Source: a virus
Lineage: Duplodnaviria > Heunggongvirae > Uroviricota > Caudoviricetes
Reading direction: 5' to 3' (one strand)
DNA: 46,602 nt
Virus record (IMG/VR): IMGVR_UViG_2724679140_000012
The translations under genes were made by a program, and so were the position numbers. Positions 3,080 to 39,194 of the stretch are shown here, one piece after another. Position 1 is the first letter of the stretch. Each line of letters starts with the position of its first letter. The notes beneath the pieces are model-generated. The model saw only the letters and a program-made list of their open reading frames with translations. It had not been told where the DNA came from and did not search any database.

Positions 3080-4296
3080 TCACCATCCTGCTCCGGCGGT
3101 TCTGGCAGCGGCATCCAGTCGGTTACATTGCGACTCTGTGTTTCGAAAAATTCATCACCATTGCGGACAATATCGAAAAACTCTCCGTCTCGATATTGCG
3201 CATAAAGAACGAATGCGCCATCACATAAAATAATTACGTGCTGACCATCATCTGGCATCCGCTCACTACAGCTTATCCAACCATCCGGAATTACCGGAGA
3301 ATTGCCATTTACCAAGTCAGCTCGAACATATAGCGTGTCATCATGGTGCTGATTGTGGCTGCACCACGTTAATTCGCTTAACTCGCCATCTTCTGGCCAT
3401 ACTCCAGCTGTTTGCAGCCAGATATGAGCTGGCGCATCCTGGCAAGGTGTATTAACTGGAAACTTGTAAGTTTGGCTTACAGGTTGGCTACCCTGAAGCA
3501 TGGCAGCGTGGCAGGCATACTCAACGCCCTTAACTGCATCTGCGCAGTAGTTATAGCGATTGCATTCCACTAATTTCCGTTTGAGTTTTTCAATTGCCTG
3601 CGCGACATCAGCCTGTATTACAGGAACTGGCGGAACGGCTGTTTGCTCTCGAACGTCATTAGTCGCTATCGGTTCTGCTGCCAACTGACTGGCATATTTG
3701 TTAATGGTAACGATAAGCTCTTGCTCAGCCTCATCCAGACAATCACCGATACCTCGCCTGTCACCGTCAAAATCATCGAAATCGGCACGAATCTTGGCAA
3801 CCTTCAGGATTGCGGACAACACCTCACTAGGAATTACCGGATAGTTGGTTGACGTTTCCGCGATTTCCCGAAAATTATTGGTTGACGAATTCTTGTTTTC
3901 CCGAAAGTTTCCGGACTGAAGCATGGCGGCGCGGCAGGCGTTCCAGCCTCTCACCTCTGCAATAGCGGCAACAGCATCAACCGCGTACATGCTAAGAGGA
4001 TTAGGCATTGGTTTTTCTTCCGGTACTACTGGCGCTGGAGGGGCGGCGTAAATGCCCTCTATCACTAAATGTTTGCGCTCAAAATCATCTGGCTCTCGAT
4101 GATATACGTAACTCCAATCACCAAGGTTATCATTGCGCCTGCAACGGAAACCTATCGGCTCGACTTCCAGCGCTGCCAGAGCAATTCGTGCCAGTTCTTC
4201 CGCTTCTTCTGCTGGCAGTACAACGTTGCTACCAGGTCCGTATGTTTCGCGCCACTGCTTGATTGTCAGCAGTCGCTCTTTGGTAATAGTGGTCAT
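3076..4296 (-). CDS. Hypothetical prophage protein with C-terminal DUF551-like domain, 406 aa
   Basis: Long minus-strand ORF; C-terminal WISCSERMPDDGQHVIILCDGAFVLYAQYRDGEFFD region resembles DUF551 from memory; internal duplicated motif A(D)AV..AAMLQ(S)G. Confidence 0.8.
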   Translation of the reverse strand: MTTITKERLLTIKQWRETYGPGSNVVLPAEEAEELARIALAALEVEPIGFRCRRNDNLGDWSYVYHREPDDFERKHLVIEGIYAAPPAPVVPEEKPMPNPLSMYAVDAVAAIAEVRGWNACRAAMLQSGNFRENKNSSTNNFREIAETSTNYPVIPSEVLSAILKVAKIRADFDDFDGDRRGIGDCLDEAEQELIVTINKYASQLAAEPIATNDVREQTAVPPVPVIQADVAQAIEKLKRKLVECNRYNYCADAVKGVEYACHAAMLQGSQPVSQTYKFPVNTPCQDAPAHIWLQTAGVWPEDGELSELTWCSHNQHHDDTLYVRADLVNGNSPVIPDGWISCSERMPDDGQHVIILCDGAFVLYAQYRDGEFFDIVRNGDEFFETQSRNVTDWMPLPEPPEQDGE

Positions 4297-4989: not shown

Positions 4990-5852
4990 TCTCCTTTGAT
5001 GCGAATGCCAGCAAGCCAGTTTCTTATGCCGATATATTCAGCGTTCCTGAAACCACTTTTTACATATATAAATGGCAAGCGAAGATTGTGACCATTGACT
5101 GCCAGGTAATCTTTACAACCCTGTTCGGTGAAACAGCAGGTAACGAATTCATCAATATCTTTCACAGCAACGCGCCGCCACTTTTCTGGTGGCTCTCGAA
5201 AGTTTTCGTGAAGTAGTTCGAGACGACGACTTTGGCGTTTATTGGCTTCATTGCCATCTTCATCAACCCAGACAATCCGGTCATAGTCATAATCAGCATC
5301 AACAACGATTTCGCGCTTTTGATACACACAAAACATAGGGTCTGACGTTATTCGATTATCCTGTGTTCGAATATTTTCACCGATGATGCCAAACGAATCT
5401 GGTGCAGATTTTGTCTGCAACTCTTCGATACGTTCAGCCATCGCAGCACACTCTTCAAAGTTGCTTAATGCTTTTCGCTCCCATTCAGCGCATTGTTTTC
5501 TAAGCTCTGCAATCAGCTTGTCTTTGCCTTCAAGCTCAACGCGCAGCTTCCCTACCGTTAGCGCAATATCCTCGTTCTCCTGATCGCGGCGTTTTATGTA
5601 TTGCTGGTTTCTTTCCCGTTCATCCAGCAGCGCCTGCACTACTTCAGGGTTGAAAGCTGCGATATAACGAGCATTAGCAGCAGCTTTTTTCTGTCCATCA
5701 AACCCAGGCCATTTGATAACATCTTCGCATCGTTTATCACCTGGCGTATGCACCGCATACGTACCAGTACCCGGCGAAATAAATGCGACCCATTCGCCCT
5801 GTGTTGCCTGTTTTGCTAACTCACGCAGTGCCTGATAGTCAATCTTGCTCAC
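4986..5852 (-). CDS. Ea22-like early-region protein, 288 aa
   Basis: N-terminus MSKIDYQALRELAKQATQGEW is the Ea22-family signature as I recall it; coiled-coil middle. Confidence 0.8.
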   Translation of the reverse strand: MSKIDYQALRELAKQATQGEWVAFISPGTGTYAVHTPGDKRCEDVIKWPGFDGQKKAAANARYIAAFNPEVVQALLDERERNQQYIKRRDQENEDIALTVGKLRVELEGKDKLIAELRKQCAEWERKALSNFEECAAMAERIEELQTKSAPDSFGIIGENIRTQDNRITSDPMFCVYQKREIVVDADYDYDRIVWVDEDGNEANKRQSRRLELLHENFREPPEKWRRVAVKDIDEFVTCCFTEQGCKDYLAVNGHNLRLPFIYVKSGFRNAEYIGIRNWLAGIRIKGE

Positions 5853-6520
5853 TGGTTGCCTCCTTTGCGAAGCTCTGCGGCGAACTCGTTAAGTGATATG
5901 TAGCAATCTCCAAATGTTAACGAACCGCTCGACTGCATATGCTCCATAGCCATCTCCACGCCCTGCGCCCGTACTTCAGCCAGGAAAGCATCTGTTGCCG
6001 GAGTTTCAGGAATCCGTCTCCTCATCCGTTCTACTGCATGATTGAACCCGAAGTCTTCCGCGAGAGATACGTCATCCATATTGTCATTGTCATCCTCAAT
6101 ATCCCGTGGTTCTGGAATTGCAGACTTTATTCCCGCATTCTCCGCCGCCAGCGCCGCGCGATTACCCTCCAGCTCTGCAATGCGCTGTTTTGCGGTATCA
6201 AGTTCAATCGATAATTTTTCCAACTGCTCTTTATGCTTCTTGTATTCCTGATATGCGTGCCAGGACTGACCTTTGCGCACACTATCAGTAATATCAGTAA
6301 TCTGTTCTGGTGTTAGCGTAGTCAGTGGCTGTGCTGGGAAAATCAGCACTTTCCCGGAATCCCAATCAAAACCAGCGTGAATTGACTGAACCTCAATTGA
6401 AGGTGTTGAACCAACGCTGCCAGGCGAATGAACAACGATCGTTACATCCATATCGCGACGATGGCTGTGGTTATTGGACAAAATACGATTCACCAACTCA
6501 GAAAATTTGGAGAATTTCAT
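5849..6520 (-). CDS. Hypothetical coiled-coil early protein (Ea22-like module), ~223 aa
   Basis: ATG at 6520-6518 with GAGG 6 nt upstream (the track's upstream start at 6532 is TTG); shares TDAFLAE(V/I)RA and ALAAENA motifs with ORF 6936..7544. Confidence 0.7.
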   Translation of the reverse strand: MKFSKFSELVNRILSNNHSHRRDMDVTIVVHSPGSVGSTPSIEVQSIHAGFDWDSGKVLIFPAQPLTTLTPEQITDITDSVRKGQSWHAYQEYKKHKEQLEKLSIELDTAKQRIAELEGNRAALAAENAGIKSAIPEPRDIEDDNDNMDDVSLAEDFGFNHAVERMRRRIPETPATDAFLAEVRAQGVEMAMEHMQSSGSLTFGDCYISLNEFAAELRKGGNQ

Positions 6521-20779: not shown

Positions 20780-20964
20780 ACGCCACAATTCAAACGATAC
20801 CAGAGCTTCTTATCCAGACACGAGGCAATCAGACCGAAGTGGCAAGGATGCTTTCCTGCGCAAGAGGAACAGTGCTCAAGTACAACCGAGACAGCAAAGG
20901 CGAGCGTCATGTAATAGTTAACGGCGTCCTGATGGTCAAACACGGCAAGAGGGGAAGACGATGA
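20776..20964 (+). CDS. ninH: NinH-like protein, 62 aa
   Basis: TIPELLIQTRGNQTEVARMLSCARGTVLKY parallels lambda NinH. Confidence 0.85.
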   Translation: MNATIQTIPELLIQTRGNQTEVARMLSCARGTVLKYNRDSKGERHVIVNGVLMVKHGKRGRR

Positions 20965-21584
20965 GACTCGAAAGCGTAGCTAAATTTCATTCGCCAAAAA
21001 GCCCGATGATGAGCGACTCACCACGGGCTACGGCTTCTGACTCTCTTTCCGGTACTGATGTGATGGCTGCTATGGGGATGGCGCAATCACAAGCCGGATT
21101 CGGAATGGCTGCATTCTGTGGTAAGCACGAACTCAGCCAGAACGACAAACAAAAGGCTATCAACTATCTGATGCAATTTGCACACAAGGTATCGGGGAAA
21201 TACCGTGGCGTGGCAAAGCTTGAAGGAAATACTAAGGCAAAGGTACTGCAAGTGCTCGCAACATTCGCTTATGCGGATTATTGCCGTAGTGCCGCGACGC
21301 CGGGCGCAAGATGCAGAGATTGCCACGGTACAGGCCGTGCGGTTGATATAGCCAAAACGGAGCAGTGGGGGAGAGTTGTTGAGAAAGAATGCGGAAGATG
21401 CAAAGGTGTCGGCTATTCAAGAATGCCAGCAAGCGCCGCATATCGCGCTGTGACGATGCTAATCCCAAATCTTACCCAACCCACCTGGTCACGCACTGTT
21501 AAGCCGCTGTATGACGCTCTGGTGGTGCAATGCCACAAAGAAGAGTCAATCGCAGACAACATTTTGAATGCGGTCACACGTTAG
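20961..21584 (+). CDS. Q: Late-gene antiterminator Q (lambda-type), 207 aa
   Basis: MRLESVAKFHSPKSPMMSDSPRATASDSLSGTD... appears near-identical to lambda Q; followed by lambda-like pR'. Confidence 0.95.
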   Translation: MRLESVAKFHSPKSPMMSDSPRATASDSLSGTDVMAAMGMAQSQAGFGMAAFCGKHELSQNDKQKAINYLMQFAHKVSGKYRGVAKLEGNTKAKVLQVLATFAYADYCRSAATPGARCRDCHGTGRAVDIAKTEQWGRVVEKECGRCKGVGYSRMPASAAYRAVTMLIPNLTQPTWSRTVKPLYDALVVQCHKEESIADNILNAVTR

Positions 21585-21626: not shown

Positions 21627-21655
21627 TTGACTTTTTGAATAAAGTTGGGTAAATT
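21627..21655 (+). promoter_or_regulatory. Late promoter pR' (-35 TTGACT, 17-bp spacer, -10 TAAATT) with qut region immediately downstream
   Basis: Sequence AAAGTTGGGTAAATTTGACCCAACGATGG parallels the lambda pR'/qut region. Confidence 0.8.
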
Positions 21656-21690
21656 TGACCCAACGATGGATAAATGCACTCGTTAAATAA

Positions 21691-21720
21691 AGCCCTGAGT
21701 TAATAGCTCGGGGCTTTTTG
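21691..21720 (+). terminator. tR'-like intrinsic terminator of the short pR' transcript
   Basis: Hairpin AGCCCUGAG-loop-CUCGGGGCU followed by UUUUU, about 30-60 nt downstream of the predicted start. Confidence 0.75.
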
Positions 21721-22223: not shown

Positions 22224-22698
22224 CGTAATAGCGGCGATAAGTGGCGGGGCTATTGCTATAGCATCTGTGTTAATCACTGGACCGAGTGGTAACGATGGTC
22301 TGGAAGGTGTCAGCTACATACCATACAAAGATATTGTTGGTGTATGGACTGTATGTCACGGACACACTGGAAAAGACATCATGCTCGGTAAAACGTATAC
22401 CGAAGCAGAATGCAAAGCTCTCCTGAATAAAGACCTTGCCACTGTTGCCAGACAAATTAACCCGTACATCAAAGTCGATATACCGGAAACAACGCGCGGC
22501 GCTCTTTATTCGTTCGTCTATAACGTGGGCGCAGGCAATTTCAGAACATCGACGCTTCTTCGCAAAATCAACCAGGGCGATATCAAGGGCGCATGTGACC
22601 AGCTACGTCGCTGGACATACGCTGGCGGTAAGCAATGGAAAGGCCTGATGACTCGTCGTGAGATTGAGCGTGAAGTCTGTTTGTGGGGGCAACAATGA
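22195..22698 (+). CDS. SAR-endolysin (lysozyme with N-terminal signal-anchor-release domain), phage-21 R-like, 167 aa
   Basis: N-terminal Gly/Ala-rich weakly hydrophobic segment [15 protein letters not shown] followed by a lysozyme domain; resembles P21 R as I recall it. Confidence 0.88.
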
Positions 22699-23162
22699 GC
22701 AGAGTAACCGCGATTATCTCCGCTCTGGTTATCTGCATCATCGTCTGCCTGTCGTGGGCGGTCAATCATTACCGTGATAACGCCATCGCCTACAAAGAAC
22801 AGCGAGATAAAAAAGTCAGTGAGCTGAAGCAGGCGACCGCCACCATTACTGACATGCAGCAGCGCCAGCGTTCTGCTGATGCACTCGATGCTAAATACAC
22901 GAAGGAGTTAGCTGATGCGAAAGCTGAAAATGATGCTCTTCGGCGCAAGCTTGATAATGGTGGTCGGGTGTTCGTCAAAGGAAAATGCCCTGTGCCATCC
23001 TCAGCCGAAACCTCCAGCGCCTCCGGCATGGGCAATGATGCCACCGTCGAACTCTCTCCAGTTGCTGGACGAAACGTTCTCGGTATCCGGGACGGAATTA
23101 TCCGCGACCAAACAGCACTGAGAACGCTTCAGGAATACATCAGGACGCAATGCCTTCGATGA
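22695..23162 (+). CDS. Rz: Rz i-spanin, 155 aa
   Basis: [40 protein letters not shown] parallels lambda Rz; N-terminal TM plus coiled-coil. Confidence 0.92.
22915..23121 (+). CDS. Rz1: Rz1 o-spanin lipoprotein embedded in Rz (+1 frame)
   Basis: Lipobox VVGCSS and Pro-rich segment [11 protein letters not shown], nested within Rz as in lambda. Confidence 0.85.
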
Positions 23163-23302
23163 TAGCGATAATTTTACTCATCATCCTTCACATCTGGCTC
23201 TGTAGACAGGATGGTGATCACTTCTGGAGTGAATCCAGATTAAACATCTCATTGCTGATGCTTGATATTGAGCATCTTGCGCGCGGTAAGGGGCTGCGTT
23301 GA
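23159..23302 (+). CDS. Possible 47-aa membrane protein coupled to Rz ([23 protein letters not shown]...)
   Basis: ATG overlaps the Rz stop (ATGA); N-terminal TM helix; below the ORF-track cutoff, translated by hand. Confidence 0.3.
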
Positions 23303-23336
23303 GATAAGAGCCAGTCATTACAAATACCAGGATTTA

Positions 23337-23359
23337 GCCTCGCATTCGCGGGGCTTTTT
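23337..23359 (+). terminator. Intrinsic terminator after the lysis cassette
   Basis: Hairpin GCCUCGC-AUUC-GCGGGGC followed by UUUUU. Confidence 0.6.
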
Positions 23360-23362
23360 ATT

Positions 23363-23406
23363 GCCATTATCAAAGCCACTCCCTACAGAGTGGCTTTGAT
23401 AATGGC
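23363..23406. repeat. Perfect 19-bp inverted repeat GCCATTATCAAAGCCACTC / GAGTGGCTTTGATAATGGC with 6-nt spacer
   Basis: Read directly; lies 60 bp upstream of the terminase small-subunit gene. Confidence 0.9.
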
Positions 23407-23468
23407 TTATACCCTACACGGGATAACTTAACTGATATCCCTTTTAACGGATAAACGGAGCACAAATA

Positions 23469-24059
23469 ATGGCAAAGCTCACCGACAAACAAGAGCTGTT
23501 TGCCCGTGAGTACCTGAAAGATCTGAACGGCACACAGGCAGCTATCAGGGCGGGCTACAGCGAGAAGACCGCCAATGAGCAGGCATCTCGACTATTAGCA
23601 AATGTTAATGTTCAAAAATTCGTTGCTGAACTTAAATCCGCCCGCGTTGAACAGACGGGCATAGATGCCGCCTATGTTCTTCGTAGATTGGTTGAAATCG
23701 ACCAGATGGATGTGCTTGACATTCTCCTGCAAAACGGTGAGCTAAAACCCATTAAAGACTGGCCTAAAGTATGGCGCACAACGCTATCAGGAATGGATGT
23801 CGTGGAGATGGCATCCGCAGATAGCGCCGCACTTCTGAAGAAAATTAAATGGCCTGATAAGGTCAAAAACCTCGAACTTCTTGGTAAGCATGTTTCTGTT
23901 CAGGCGTTTAAAGAGCAAACATCTACAGAAATAACTGGAGCTGATGGCGGACCTGTTCGTTATGCCGATATGTCAGAAGAGTTACTTGAAGAGAAACTGA
24001 AGGAGCTTGGTAATGGCAGGCGCTCCAATCAGCTTGAATCGAAACGCTCAGATTTATGA
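23469..24059 (+). CDS. Terminase small subunit, 196 aa
   Basis: N-terminal MAKLTDKQELFAREYLKDLNGTQAAIRAGYS is the typical small-terminase HTH signature; immediately upstream of the large subunit. Confidence 0.85.
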   Translation: MAKLTDKQELFAREYLKDLNGTQAAIRAGYSEKTANEQASRLLANVNVQKFVAELKSARVEQTGIDAAYVLRRLVEIDQMDVLDILLQNGELKPIKDWPKVWRTTLSGMDVVEMASADSAALLKKIKWPDKVKNLELLGKHVSVQAFKEQTSTEITGADGGPVRYADMSEELLEEKLKELGNGRRSNQLESKRSDL

Positions 24060-25533
24060 GTTGCACAAAGAGCTGGCTATCCGATCAGCAAGAAAAAACC
24101 TTCTCGATTTCACTTTGTACACTAATCCGCAATACGAAACAGGTTGGTTTAACGAGCTGCTTTGTGCTGAGCTAGATCACTTTCTGGATGAAGTTAAAGC
24201 CGGAAACATGCCTAGGCTAATGGTGTTTGCCCCTCCGCGCTCAGGAAAGAGTGAGTTGTGCTCTCGCCGCTTCCCAGCGTATGTGTTAGGACAGCATCCA
24301 TCATGGAACATTATTTCGTGCTCATATTCTTCTGACCTGTCAGACCGAATGAGCCGTGACGTTAAACGCATTATCACCTCTGACAAGTACGCTGATGTTT
24401 TCCCTGACGTGAAAATACCTTCAGGACGTAGTTTGGCGGGAGGCATCAACAAAACCGAGCTATGGGAACCAGTGGATGCCAAAGGCGAACTACACGGCGG
24501 CTCATATCGTTCTGCTGGTGTTAACGGTGGTATCACCGGTCAGGGTATGAACATTGGGGTTATTGATGACCCCGCGAAAGATTACAAAACCGCATCGTCT
24601 CCAATTTACCAGGAAGCGGTGATGGACTGGTATGACACGACATTCTTCACTCGTGTTGACCCGAAGATAAACGGCATCGTCATCATCCTGACACGCTGGC
24701 ATCAAAACGATCTCGCCGGACAGTTATTAAAACTGGCAGAAGAAGGCGGGGAACGCTGGCGCGTAGTTAGCTTCCCTATGGAAGCTGAAAAGGAAGAGAT
24801 TCATGAGCTCAACGGTAAAGTATATCGACTGCGCAATCCCGGTGAAATTCTGTTCCCTGAGCGCATGCCGAGAGAGTTCGTAGAGAAATGCAAACAACGC
24901 GGTTCCCTTGTATGGAATGCTCTTTATCAGCAAAGACCAACCGCCAAAGGCGGGCGGCTTATTAAGTCTGAATGGTTTGGTGAATATTCGGTACTCCCTC
25001 CCATGCAATGGCGTGCCGTCTATGGAGACACCGCACAGAAAACAAAAGAGGTCAACGACTTCTCAGTATTCGAGCACTGGGGGCTTGGTACTGACGGGTA
25101 CATCTATCTGATCGATATGATTCGCGGTAAATGGGAGGCCGATGAATTACAACGCCGTGCTGTTGCATTCTGGGAAAAGTGCAAAACTCTGAAGAATGGG
25201 CCGCTTCGCCACATGGCGATAGAGGACAAGTCATCTGGCACAGGCCTGATACAGAACATCCGTAAAAAAGCGATATGCCCCATCAAAGCAATTCAGCGCG
25301 ATAAGGATAAGTACACGCGACTGATGGACGTACAGGGTTATATCGAGTCCGGTTACATCAAGTTGCCCAGCAGCGCACCATTCATCAACGACTTCCTCGT
25401 TGAGATGGAAGCCATTAATCCTGATTTCAATACGCACGACGACCAGCTTGATCCGATGATGGATGCCATCGATGAGATGAAAAATGGCAATGGTCCGTTA
25501 CGTATATCTGAAGACCTTTTGAGGCTCGCATAG
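24007..25533 (+). CDS. Terminase large subunit, ~508 aa (start 24007 or 24013)
   Basis: Walker A PPRSGKSE, ATPase and nuclease-domain acidic motifs; position after the small subunit. Confidence 0.9.
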
Positions 25534-27068
25534 TGTTTAATTTTTTGAGAAAGAAAAAATCTGAGCCTCAGAAAGAAGAGGCGAAACAGCCAATGTCTCT
25601 GGCGAATGTTCTTGCGATTATTAACGAACAGGAGCGAATTAAAAATGAAGGCGAGGCATTGCGTAGAATTGAGAGATACGTACCCCCGCCAGGCGTTATT
25701 CCTGAACATATTGAGGAGTCAGCTCTGGCGATGGACTCCACGCCGTACAGTTACCTTAACTCAGCAAACATCACCGCATATGGCTACGGTGGATTTCCTG
25801 GCTACCCATATCTGTCTCAACTTGCTCAGTTGCCGGAGTATCGCAAGATTACTGGCACGATAGCAGAAGAGATGACGCGAAAATGGATTGAGCTGAAACA
25901 TGTAGGTAAAGACGATGGTGACGACAAGGCCGATAAGATTCGCCAGCTTGACGACGCATTAAAGCGTTTCAGAGTGCGAGAGAAGTTTCGCGAGGCGGCG
26001 GAACATGACGGTTACTTCGGGCGCGGACAGATTTATATCGACGTGAAGACGCCAAGCGGTAACTCAGCCTGGCTGGTTCCCGACGAACTGGATAAGAAGC
26101 TCTATATCAGCCCGCGCAAGATTACCAAAGGAAGCCTGAATGGTTTCCGCGTTATCGAGGCCATGTGGACATACCCTGGTGTGTATAACGCTGATAACCC
26201 TCTCAGTCCTGATTTCTTCAATCCATCTGAATGGTATGTCATGGGGCGCACGGTTCACGCCAGCCGTATGTTGACAATGATTTCTCGACAGGTGCCAGAC
26301 ATTCTCAAAGCTGCGTACAACTTCGGCGGCTTGTCGCTGAGTCAGATGGCAGAGCCATACGTGCAGAACTGGTTGAGAACGCGTGACAGCGTTAGCGATC
26401 TGGTTCATTCGTTTGTGGTCTATGGGCTGAAGACGAACATGCAGAGTGCCTTGTCTGGAATTGCAGACCCAAACCTGTTTATGCGTGCCGAGCTCTTTAA
26501 TAAGGTTCGCGACAATCGCGGAATGTTCCTTATTGATAAGGATGGAGAAGAATTCTTCCAGTTTGTGACAAGTCTGTCCGGAGTTGATGCTCTTCAGGCG
26601 CAAGCGCAGGAACAAATGGCATCGGTATCAAGCATTCCTCTGGTTAAGCTCCTTGGCATCACTCCTAACGGGCTAAACGCTTCATCTGATGGCGAAATCC
26701 GCGTCTTCTATGACTCAATACACGCCATGCAGGAGAATCTGTTCAGGGTGCCGCTGAAAACAGTGCTGGATGTTATCCAGTTGAATGAATTTGGCGAGAT
26801 TGACCCTGACATTGATTTTGAATTCCTGCCGCTGTACGAGCTTACAGAAGCAGAGAAAGCCGAGATCATGAAACATCAGTCTGAGGCTGATAAGAACTAT
26901 GCCGAAGCTGGCGTGTTCGACCTTGATGCAATAAGAAGCATGCGCCAGTCGGATAAGGCCAGCCCATACCACATGATGGAATCTGAATATGACGAAGAAG
27001 AGTACGAAAACGAGTCCATCGAAGAAGGATTCGAAGACACGGAAAACCCTTCGTCCAGTCAGAGCTAA
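25533..27068 (+). CDS. Portal protein, 511 aa
   Basis: Large ORF directly after terminase with acidic C-terminus; synteny. Confidence 0.8.
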
Positions 27069-27807
27069 CGCCGGAGTTCATGAGTGGTATCGCTCTGAGC
27101 TTCTCAAGCTGGTCAGTGAGATGAATAAGTCTTACCGGTACTGGCTTGAGGCTGCATACAAAGACAGCATGGCGATGGATGCCAGCCCCGCAAATGAATT
27201 GAAGCGCAGGCTGGCTAATCTTGGCAAGCAGTGGGAGCATAAATTCAATGAACTGGCTAAGAAACTGGCTGATCGCTTCGTTGATAAGACACTGCGCAAC
27301 ACCGACGTTTCGTTACACTCAGCGTTAAAGGCTGGCGGATTTACCGTTAAGTTCACAATGAATGACGAGCTTAAGAACGTGATGCAGGCTGTCGTTAACG
27401 AGAACGTCAACCTGATTAAATCCATACCTGAACACTATCACACACAGGTTGAGACGATAGTCATGCAGTCTGTCAGCCGTGGTCGTGACCTTAGCTATCT
27501 CACTGATGAACTGGTTAAGCGATATGGCATTACACGCAGACGCGCTGAGACGATTGCACGCGATCAGAACAACAAAGCTACAGCAGTAATTCAGTCTGAA
27601 CGGCAGAAGAAGTTAGGAATCACCAAAGGAATCTGGCGTCACTCACACGCCGGGAAGCAGCCAAGGCCATCCCATGTGAAAGCTGACGGTAAAGAGTTCG
27701 ACCTCGATAAAGGGCTGTATCTCGATGGTGAATGGGTGCTGCCGGGAGAGGCTATCAACTGCCGTTGTGCGTGGTCTCCTGTTATCCCTGGGATAGATAG
27801 AAAATGA
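26989..27807 (+). CDS. Head morphogenesis protein, Mu F / SPP1 gp7 family (start uncertain), ~272 aa
   Basis: C-terminal NCRCAW motif and position after portal; track start overlaps portal by 80 nt. Confidence 0.75.
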
Positions 27808-27896
27808 TTGAGGTTTTATGGTCTCTGGGCTTAGTGTTGATTTTTGGTTGCTTAATGATTGCACTACTGAAAATAGCTATGCCCAAGAGGAAATAA
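27804..27896 (+). CDS. Possible 30-aa hydrophobic micro-ORF ([30 protein letters not shown])
   Basis: ATG overlaps the MuF-like stop (ATGA); single TM helix; followed by a terminator. Confidence 0.3.
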   Translation: MIEVLWSLGLVLIFGCLMIALLKIAMPKRK

Positions 27897-27898
27897 TG

Positions 27899-27918
27899 GC
27901 CGCTACTGCGGCTTTTTT
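27899..27918 (+). terminator. Intrinsic terminator within the late operon
   Basis: Hairpin GCCGC-UACU-GCGGC followed by UUUUUU. Confidence 0.6.
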
Positions 27919-27941
27919 ATTGCCTGCCGAAAGGTAAATGC

Positions 27942-29168
27942 ATGCCATTACGCAAAGTTAAAGGCGACTGGCAATGGGGATATCACGGATTGGCATTCGA
28001 CAAGGCAACGGTGCGCTCCTTTGATAAGGATGGGCGTTTGCATATCGAAGTGACGCCAATCAGTAAGGCTAACGTTTGCCCTTATTATGGACGCGAAATC
28101 CCTAATTACAGATCGCTAGGTTTACAGCCTGACAAAGTTTACTACCTGCTTCGCGACCCGAAAGAGTTAGCCAAAGCAGCATCTACATTCAACAACATCC
28201 CGCTCCTTAACGAACACATTCCGGTTACTGCTTCAGACCCTCAGAAGATGGCTGTGGTTGGTTCTACTGGTACTGATGCTGAGTTTGACGGGACTTATCT
28301 CAAGAATTCGCTTGTTGTCTGGGACGCAGATTCTATCTCTGGAATCGAGACAGACGAGAAGAAAGAACTTTCGTCGGCCTACAGATATGTAGCTGACATG
28401 ACCCCCGGCGTGCATGAAGGACAGCCATACGATGGTGTAATGCGCGATATCGTCGGGAACCACGTTGCTCTCGTAACAGAGGGAAGAGCCGGATCCGACG
28501 TTGTTGTCGGGGATTCAATACCAACAGGAATGAAATCAATGTCAGAACTTGCTAAAAAGTTGATGGCAGTTATCACGCCGATGCTGGCCAGTGATGAGAA
28601 GCCAGAAGAAGTGGAAAAGAAAGTGCAAAAGGTTGTTGAAGACGAAGCCACTCAGGCTGAGAGAGATAATGAGTCAGAAGCAGAGCGTCTGAAACGTGAA
28701 GAGGATGAACTAAAAGAGCGTGAAGAACGTGAGCGAAAGGATCGTGATCGTGACCGCAAAGAAGCGGAAGACGAAAATGATGACGGCAAGGATAAAAAGA
28801 CTGCCGAGGATGAAGACGATGATGAGAATAAAGCAGCTATGGATGCCGCATTGATTCGAAAAGCTGAAGAGAATGTGATGGGGCGTATCCGTCAAGCCAA
28901 TGAGGCTCGAGAATGCGTTCGCCCTCTGGTAGGCGATGTGAGCCTGGTAGCAATGGATTCCGCAGAGTCTATTTACCGATTCGCTCTTGATTCAATCGGT
29001 GCAGAACATAAAGGAGTTCATCCTTCAGCACTTAAATCGATGGTTGAATTCGCTATCAGCCAGAAAGCGGTAGTTCGCAAACCATCTCATGGTATGGGTA
29101 TGGATGCTGCCGCAACCAATTCTTTCGCCAAGGCATTTCCTGGCGCAACTAAACTGAAACGGAGCTAA
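27942..29168 (+). CDS. Putative prohead scaffold/protease (DUF2213-like) with highly charged E/K/D/R-rich central region, 408 aa
   Basis: Position between MuF-like and capsid genes; low-complexity charged coiled-coil typical of scaffolds. Confidence 0.65.
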
Positions 29169-39095: not shown

Positions 39096-39194
39096 ATCCT
39101 GAATAATTTTTTACCACAGGATATGTAGGTATCTATTGACTATCAATGCGTACCTACATACTATGTATGCGTACCGCATACCAAAGGAGCGAAA
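39096..39194. promoter_or_regulatory. immI-type divergent control region: Pant candidate (-35 TTGACT 39136-39141, -10 TACTAT 39159-39164) and operator-like palindromes
   Basis: Inverted repeats TGTAGGTA/TACCTACA (39124-39131 and 39151-39158) flanking the -35, and GTATGCG-TAC-CGCATAC (39164-39180) over the start region. Confidence 0.6.

Follow-up and report, generated by a model that had tools for sequence, protein, structure and literature searches.

Control of the late genes of lambdoid phages is usually described in terms of the promoter pR' and antitermination by Q, and little is known about what happens to the late transcript post-transcriptionally. Among the described RNA structures that come closest to the locus considered here, the RNase III sites in the polycistronic mRNAs of phage T7 each form a stem of some 20 bp that is divided by a small internal loop, itself conserved; the put sites of HK022, a phage without N, follow shortly after the early promoters and are cis-acting antiterminators.

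Here, we analyse a palindrome found directly upstream of the terminase genes in a caudoviricete record of 46,602 nucleotides (IMG/VR record IMGVR_UViG_2724679140_000012), the whole of which is referred to below as the window. The palindrome, designated HP1, is usually accompanied by a second hairpin, HP2, with which it makes up the element under discussion. Our overall explanation, in which we place about even confidence, is that the palindrome encodes an RNA hairpin conserved in the lambdoid late transcript, at the boundary between the lysis and head genes.

HP1 resembles the R1.1-type RNase III hairpins of T7 and those of the lambda N leader and sib in its intercistronic position, in its stem of about 20 bp, in the presence of related copies at module boundaries, in an internal loop that splits the stem into a 7-bp lower and a 9–10-bp upper part, and in stems that drift with compensation. 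It differs from them in that its internal loop is a symmetric 2 × 2 CA/GA loop, whereas that of the T7 sites is larger and asymmetric, in that its stem falls slightly below two helical turns, and in that the copy in the window has no internal loop. The two adjacent stem-loops, about 90 nt in total and located in a nascent lambdoid transcript, are also reminiscent of the HK022 put RNAs, but HP1 and HP2 lie deep in a Q-antiterminated operon, and no relationship to put was found in sequence or in Rfam. RNase III accommodates a duplex of about 22 bp, and the sites it uses in vivo are over-represented between genes of a common transcript (PMC6212723). The HP1 stem, with 19 stacked positions, approaches this length and falls slightly short of it; in the consensus, these positions comprise 7 bp, the 2 × 2 loop and 10 bp, and in the window all of them are paired. 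HP1 belongs to the enriched class of location, being intergenic between the lysis cassette and terS on the strand of the late operon. Published RNase III maps are uninformative on HP1, since lambda and the E. coli K-12 prophages do not carry the element.

Two further comparisons concern the position of the element. The ‘boundary sequences’ (bsq) of the Sf6 record are likewise short conserved non-coding segments flanking exchangeable modules, and mosaic joints map to the HP1 element; however, the HP1 segment is not annotated as bsq in Sf6 or HK620, and what is conserved in it is RNA pairing rather than mere sequence. Intrinsic terminators that close morons are similar in that HP1 can directly follow the stop codon of an inserted gene or the lysis cassette, and the Ayreon record labels the element in this way; HP1 differs from them in its lack of a U-tract, its conserved internal loop, and its position beside a true terminator in the window and in 35 other copies.

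Known small RNAs provided no match. No Rfam family reached its gathering score, and apart from STnc560 the hits were chance matches to miRNA precursors; STnc560 (RF01407) was rejected at 21.3 bits against a gathering score of 55 and as a chromosomal locus, being an sRNA of the ydeI/ydeE intergenic region (PMC2515195). The anti-sRNAs AgvB/AsxR, found near pR' at an insertion site that separates Q from the lysis genes (PMC4104026), and 24B_1 of Phi24B, encoded on the opposite strand in the interval from lom to vb_24B_43 (PMC4426718), were set aside for their different positions in the phage genome. No RNA at the position of HP1 appears in a 2025 review of phage sRNAs, and no description of the HP1/HP2 element was found in a literature search outside of which many older phage genome papers fall. 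Curated records leave the element blank, label it as a terminator (Ayreon) or overlay it with open reading frames (P22 orf25, ST64T orf-118). The latter two look like annotation artefacts: orf25 is drawn over HP1/HP2 (L170/L171), and orf-118 (L176 1164–1520) appears over-extended, the 80-aa DUF2560-type gene having its own Shine–Dalgarno sequence and an ATG at L176 1279. The HP1 element is a very common, structured part of lambdoid late operons and is apparently undescribed.

The palindrome and its surroundings

The features of the locus are collected in Table 1. An inverted-repeat search recovered the palindrome with exactly the coordinates, the 19/19 complementarity and the 6-nt spacer given by the sequence-only reading; its arms are GCCATTATCAAAGCCACTC and GAGTGGCTTTGATAATGGC, and its loop is CCTACA. 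Folded as + strand RNA, it forms a 19-bp hairpin of −32.7 kcal/mol, and the 171-nt region around it reaches −59.2 kcal/mol (z = −7.1 relative to shuffles). The same reading had judged such a palindrome unlikely to arise by chance, and this was borne out: no HP1-like inverted repeat occurred in 100 dinucleotide-preserving shuffles with three mismatches tolerated, no other perfect inverted repeat of hairpin type in the window reaches 14 nt, and the arms of HP1 covary among relatives (see below). HP1 is a real, non-random feature. The other hairpin-type inverted repeat found in the window, at 39122–39160, has 18-nt arms that are 83% complementary and a 3-nt spacer.

Table 1. Features at the lysis/head boundary, in window coordinates
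Feature	Coordinates	Strand	Remarks
50-aa small ORF	23150..23302	+	Last gene of the lysis cassette; homologue of Sf6 gene 65 and epsilon34 gp67
TCATTACAAA, apparent remnant of an HP1 left arm	23315..23324	+	Alignment columns common with the Sf6 hairpin-only copy
Terminator-like hairpin	23336..23359	+	Stem 23336–23343 / 23348–23355, loop ATTC, T-run up to 23359
HP1 palindrome	23363..23406	+	Arms 23363–23381 and 23388–23406, loop 23382–23387
Derived TC (family consensus CA)	23370..23371	+	Closes the 2 × 2 loop, making the palindrome perfect
HP2, second hairpin	23407..23454	+	RNAalifold consensus
Shine–Dalgarno sequence GGAG and terS start codon	23457..23471	+	GGAG 23457–23460, start codon 23469–23471; directly 3' of HP2
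terS, Terminase_2-type small terminase	23469..24059	+	Pfam PF03592, E = 8.6e-38; first gene 3' of the element

The genes around HP1 are those of a standard lambdoid late region. Upstream lie the Q antiterminator (20961–21584), pR'/tR'-like sites, holin, lysozyme, Rz/Rz1 and the 50-aa ORF; terS is followed by a Terminase_6 large subunit (terL, Terminase_6N/6C in Pfam), a Phage_portal_3 portal and a Mu-F-like protein. Just downstream of Q, a promoter-like TTGACT and TAAATT separated by 17 nt (21627–21655) precede a 13-bp terminator-like hairpin (21689–21717), as expected for the pR'/tR' pair of a late operon, and no sigma-70-like promoter was found on either strand in 23300–23470. The 50-aa ORF has no Pfam family, and its homologues are annotated as coding sequences in Ayreon, mEp460, Sf6, Kapi1 and epsilon34; conserved non-coding sequence starts after its stop codon. 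At the position aligned to 23315, where the window retains the apparent left-arm remnant, a complete hairpin-only HP1 begins in Sf6, L167 and ST64T. A mini-ORF starting in the right arm (ATG 23402, 9 codons, MAYTLHGIT) was rejected as non-coding, its start being lost in L012 and conservation being at the nucleotide level.

The hairpin that precedes HP1 looks like an intrinsic terminator, as the sequence-only reading had proposed for this position after the lysis genes. Its stem, AGCCTCGC-ATTC-GCGGGGCT, is 8 bp long with six G-C pairs and is followed by the tail TTTTATTGCC; it has a ΔG of −13.6 kcal/mol, a T-score of 3.86, and a d-score of +18.9 by a crude formula that gives a negative value even for the tR'-like hairpin at 21689 and serves as a secondary argument only. 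The homologous hairpin of epsilon34 is annotated as a Rho-independent terminator. Q-modified polymerase is expected to read through a terminator-like hairpin of this kind. HP1 begins three bases past the T-run, and 62 nt separate its 3' end from the ATG of terS.

HP2 consists of an outer helix, in which UUAU.CC (23407–23413) pairs with GGAUAA (23449–23454), and an inner helix, in which GGGAUA.C (23420–23427) pairs with G.UAUCCC (23434–23441). No covariation was detected in HP2 within the anchor-selected set, which is nearly invariant there; this conservation is partly a product of the search anchor, which covered part of HP2. The outer helix is retained around a different interior in P22 and in CCCAACAAGCGGAUAAA variants, and HP2 is mostly deleted in ST64T and is dispensable in ST64T-type phages, these being too few lineages for a covariation test of HP2. 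HP1, usually with HP2, forms a modular non-coding unit of about 95 nt.

Copies of the element and their contexts

A BLAST search of the window against phage genomes gave homology that spans the lysis cassette and the palindrome and ends just before or at the terS start codon, and the partners that share the lysis cassette and palindrome carry quite different packaging modules. Using a conserved 16-mer just 3' of the palindrome as an anchor, we searched IMG/VR contigs, phage records and Escherichia genomes and obtained 128 copies, which represent 63 distinct 127-nt variants; a covariance model built from 33 variants was used to find further copies. The 105-nt element occurs at 3,414 places in 2,546 of the 5,426 complete E. 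coli genomes (47%). It is present in HK97, HK022, HK620, Sf6, CUS-3, Stx2 phages, mEp460, Ayreon, epsilon34, ST64T and P22, and so spans phages of Escherichia, Shigella and Salmonella; the P22 copy is diverged (52.9 bits with the covariance model). The same model found no copy in lambda or in the K-12 cryptic prophages DLP12 and Qin, and a 16-mer scan of bacterial genomes gave mostly chance matches outside Escherichia.

Every copy is oriented with the downstream late genes, follows either the lysis genes or inserted accessory genes, and precedes the gene that comes first in the head region, be it DUF2560, HNH, terS or another. An 80-aa DUF2560 gene follows in 64 copies, the window-type terS in 10 and a few other genes elsewhere, and 37 mEp460-type copies are followed by a stretch without an adjacent ORF or start codon. 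The spacing from element to start codon is constant in 10/10 copies before the window-type terS and in 64/64 before DUF2560. In HK97, the element precedes gp74 (HNH); in Stx2 phage 1717, it stands after KilA-N-type genes and before HNH and terS; in HK620 and epsilon34, it precedes hkbM/DUF2560; and in Sf6, HK620 and P22, genes of the DUF2560 type are followed by a P22-type terS. On the upstream side, 35 copies have a T-run terminator, 43 a conserved spacer of about 155 nt and the rest the stop codon of an inserted gene. The 35 upstream terminators comprise at least four unrelated stems at the same position, and the genes that end immediately before the element include Sf6 gene 66, HK620 hkbL and KilA-N-type genes. 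All four E. coli prophages examined that have the window's terS keep the element, whatever accessory gene (Rha, KilA-N or Gp49) has been inserted upstream. The element is independent of terminase type, and joints of mosaic recombination coincide with it or lie inside it.

HP1 also occurs without HP2. Such hairpin-only copies (CATTACAAAGCCyATCTACnGGTGGGCTTGATAATG) lie after the lysis cassette or inserted genes, 250–600 nt upstream of the full element, in L003 (Sf6; ~1690–1725), L167 (1610–1668), L165 (2778–2835), L176 (ST64T; 1018–1053) and more than a dozen IMG/VR loci, so that Gp49 and similar accessory genes are bracketed by two copies of HP1. The spacer of about 155 nt is conserved between the hairpin-only copy and a type-C HP1 in L165 (2836–2976), L170 (P22; 1680–1809) and L176 (1054–1210); a possible 27–28-aa ORF in it, MNL(L/Q)PYGKKDSLWWRTDGKTSVIAEAI(Q), crosses the left arm and ends within the HP1 loop.

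Two of these loci contain relatives of window genes. In P22 (L170, NC_002371 38500–41724), a decayed fragment at ~2245–2330 resembles the N-terminus of the window's Terminase_2-type terS (GTGGCACTCACCGACAAGCAAGAAATGTTCTGTCATGAGTACCTC...) and lies 3' of the P22 element, past a bidirectional terminator and an opposite-strand gene; this suggests that the ancestral order was element, then terS. In L165 (E. coli STEC299), RefSeq presents a homologue of the window's portal at 5146–6261, beside an IS100-type element, as a partial pseudogene named ‘anti-CBASS protein Acb1 family’, which is probably the result of truncation plus a naming artefact.

Covariation and the window's perfect form

Across 58 distinct HP1 variants, 85.6% of the cells of the alignment are paired, and both sides have changed in 10 of the 19 pairs. 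The covariation score of 0.361 exceeds a shuffled mean of 0.220 (reached in 0/500 shuffles) and drops to at most 0.154 when the pairing is slid by one to three columns. Covarying pairs include 12-33 (GC in 40 variants, AU in 18), 18-27 (UA in 30, CG in 26) and 13-32, which occurs as CG (26), GC (19), GU (6), AU (5) and UG (2). An alignment of 33 variants and an independent RNAalifold fold agree with the structure obtained from the 58. The variants represent about four or five lineages and thus few independent compensatory events, though several pairs changed at each split.

Read on the + strand, the 33-variant subset has G·U in 73 cells at nine positions as opposed to A·C in six cells at two positions, and wobble-rich variants are more stable on that strand (e.g. 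−21.4 vs −10.2 kcal/mol on the − strand). The length of the loop is 3, 4 or 6 nt depending on the lineage. HP1 behaves as a + strand RNA hairpin on the grounds of this covariation, the excess of G·U over A·C and the variable loop; formally, a hairpin in + strand single-stranded DNA would be expected to have the same asymmetry, with G·T in place of G·U. We consider it highly probable that HP1 is a + strand hairpin maintained by selection rather than a signal for packaging.

Between the two parts of the stem, a 2 × 2 internal loop of 5'-CA opposite 5'-GA is found in 31 of the 33 variants, stem positions 8 and 9 are unpaired in 56–57 of the 58, and the CA/GA loop is conserved among lineages with diverged stems. 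The perfect form is limited to the window and L112 among the 128 copies, and the best full-length matches to the window's element in complete E. coli genomes are 98.1% identical, with two mismatches. Judged against its relatives, the perfect 19/19 form of the window is a rare derivative in which CA has become TC. Adjacent substitutions that perfect the arms of a quasi-palindrome are the expected signature of template switching, an established mutational mechanism. As these two adjacent substitutions make the arms exactly complementary, a single template-switching event within the quasi-palindrome is the most likely origin of the change.

The perfect sequence is also not tied to the packaging module. 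L112 matches 22241–23455 of the window at 98.2% and then diverges. L041 matches 23364–28000 at 97.1% (4.6 kb, with the same terS, terL and portal) and has an imperfect type-D HP1 with different arms and loop. From these ranges, the window is a mosaic with a joint inside the element. L119 and L055, which have the window's type of terminase, carry a type-C HP1. The sequence-only reading had looked to near-identical relatives for conservation of the palindrome: the perfect sequence is absent from them and the hairpin is retained.

Possible roles of the element

That the palindrome might belong to a packaging recognition region, or be a DNA site for a protein, was suggested by the sequence-only reading, and both proposals are contradicted by the comparison with other phages. 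SPP1-type terminases do use sequences around the 5' end of terS, and a pac region recognized by a Terminase_2-type terminase, or a palindromic operator bound by a protein dimer, would fit an element that sits directly upstream of terS, at the same distance in all 10 copies with the window-type terS, and that is kept in the four E. coli prophages examined. The same element, however, accompanies unrelated packaging systems, namely cos/HNH-type (HK97, Stx2 phage 1717), P22-type (Sf6, HK620, P22, epsilon34), SPP1-type (Terminase_2) and other modules, usually with other genes before terS, and L041, with packaging genes at 97% identity, has a different HP1. A symmetric operator is further contradicted by arms that covary at 10 pairs, by a loop of 3, 4 or 6 nt and by mismatches that are strand-asymmetric. 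We regard any such DNA-level site as extremely improbable, and the palindrome can be removed from the candidate pac sites of the window phage. The strand asymmetry also bears on the idea that HP1 has no function and is a self-maintaining quasi-palindrome or recombination boundary, in which template-switch repair homogenizes the arms and mimics covariation. The window's variant looks like just such a correction, two adjacent changes having perfected the arms, mosaic joints coincide with the element or lie inside it, and its copies flank inserted genes. But correction of this kind yields Watson–Crick arms and would erase the internal loop and the G·U pairs, both of which persist in the proportions given above, and the element has lasted in 47% of E. 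coli genomes and across the phages of three host genera; we find this account very improbable.

Two further accounts assign HP1 a role in the transcript. As a second terminator, which the sequence-only reading also entertained, or as a weak or auxiliary terminator or pause hairpin, it would block transcripts of lysogen accessory genes before the head genes and be passed by Q-modified RNA polymerase. It closes the lysis cassette on the 3' side or comes right after the stop codons of inserted genes, the Sf6-type hairpin-only copy sits where the window has its canonical terminator, the depositors of Ayreon annotated the element as a terminator, and the strong hairpin is followed by UUAU. Yet there is no U-tract after either form, the tail being UUAUACCC in full copies (T-score 2.2) and AAACCG in hairpin-only copies (T-score 0.08); the d-score, for what its crude formula is worth, is negative in every HP1 variant (−5 to −70); a conserved internal loop is not a feature of terminators; and HP1 is maintained with covariation although 35 copies have a proper T-run terminator directly upstream. 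The case for termination is a weak one, and we rate it as unlikely. Alternatively, HP1, with or without HP2, may be a protein-bound RNA operator or a switch governing how the first gene of the head region is translated. The conserved CA/GA loop and the near-invariant HP2 suggest sequence-specific recognition, and the spacing to the Shine–Dalgarno sequence and AUG of DUF2560 and terS is fixed. In the switch version, the left arm would pair alternately with the start-codon region: UUGCCAUUAU (23361–23370; the 5' half of the left arm being TTGCCATTAT) is perfectly complementary to AUAAUGGCAA/ATAATGGCAA (23466–23475), which spans the terS AUG, and the right arm (23399–23406) repeats AUAAUGGC/ATAATGGC (23466–23473), so that an alternative pairing may mask the start codon. 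This complementarity is lost by inspection with other downstream genes (e.g. in the MSDIYQ context) and mostly reflects a common AAUGGC motif. Against regulation of this kind more generally, the 37 mEp460-type copies have no adjacent start codon, the downstream genes are unrelated with no single autoregulator evident, and ST64T lacks HP2; we consider it improbable.

Our own preference, a tentative one held with clearly less than even confidence, is for HP1 as a processing or stability hairpin. It would be transcribed within the rightward, Q-dependent late transcript and act post-transcriptionally as an intercistronic hairpin similar to an RNase III site. Cleavage at or near HP1 would uncouple the decay of the lysis mRNA from that of the morphogenesis mRNA and leave protective hairpins at the new mRNA ends, and HP2 would shield the ribosome-binding site of the gene that follows from the variable sequence upstream. 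Such insulation would not be a universal role, given the 37 mEp460-type copies without an adjacent start codon. Should HP1 be a substrate of RNase III, cleavage of the window's perfect form would be expected in both strands and not in one.

For annotators, an element that is currently blank, labelled as a terminator or covered by spurious ORFs receives a concrete fix. It also marks a recurrent recombination joint, which helps to account for the shuffling of lysis cassettes, accessory genes and packaging modules. HP1, alone or together with HP2, is possibly, though with somewhat less than even confidence on our part, an undescribed cis-regulatory RNA motif that partitions the late transcript of about 20 kb between lysis and assembly genes, by processing, differential stability or translational control, with the CA/GA loop as the feature that a nuclease or another protein would specifically recognize. 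A covarying hairpin that stands between the lysis and morphogenesis genes in classic model phages and in the prophages of about half of E. coli genomes would offer a cheap and testable entry to the processing of lambdoid late mRNA.
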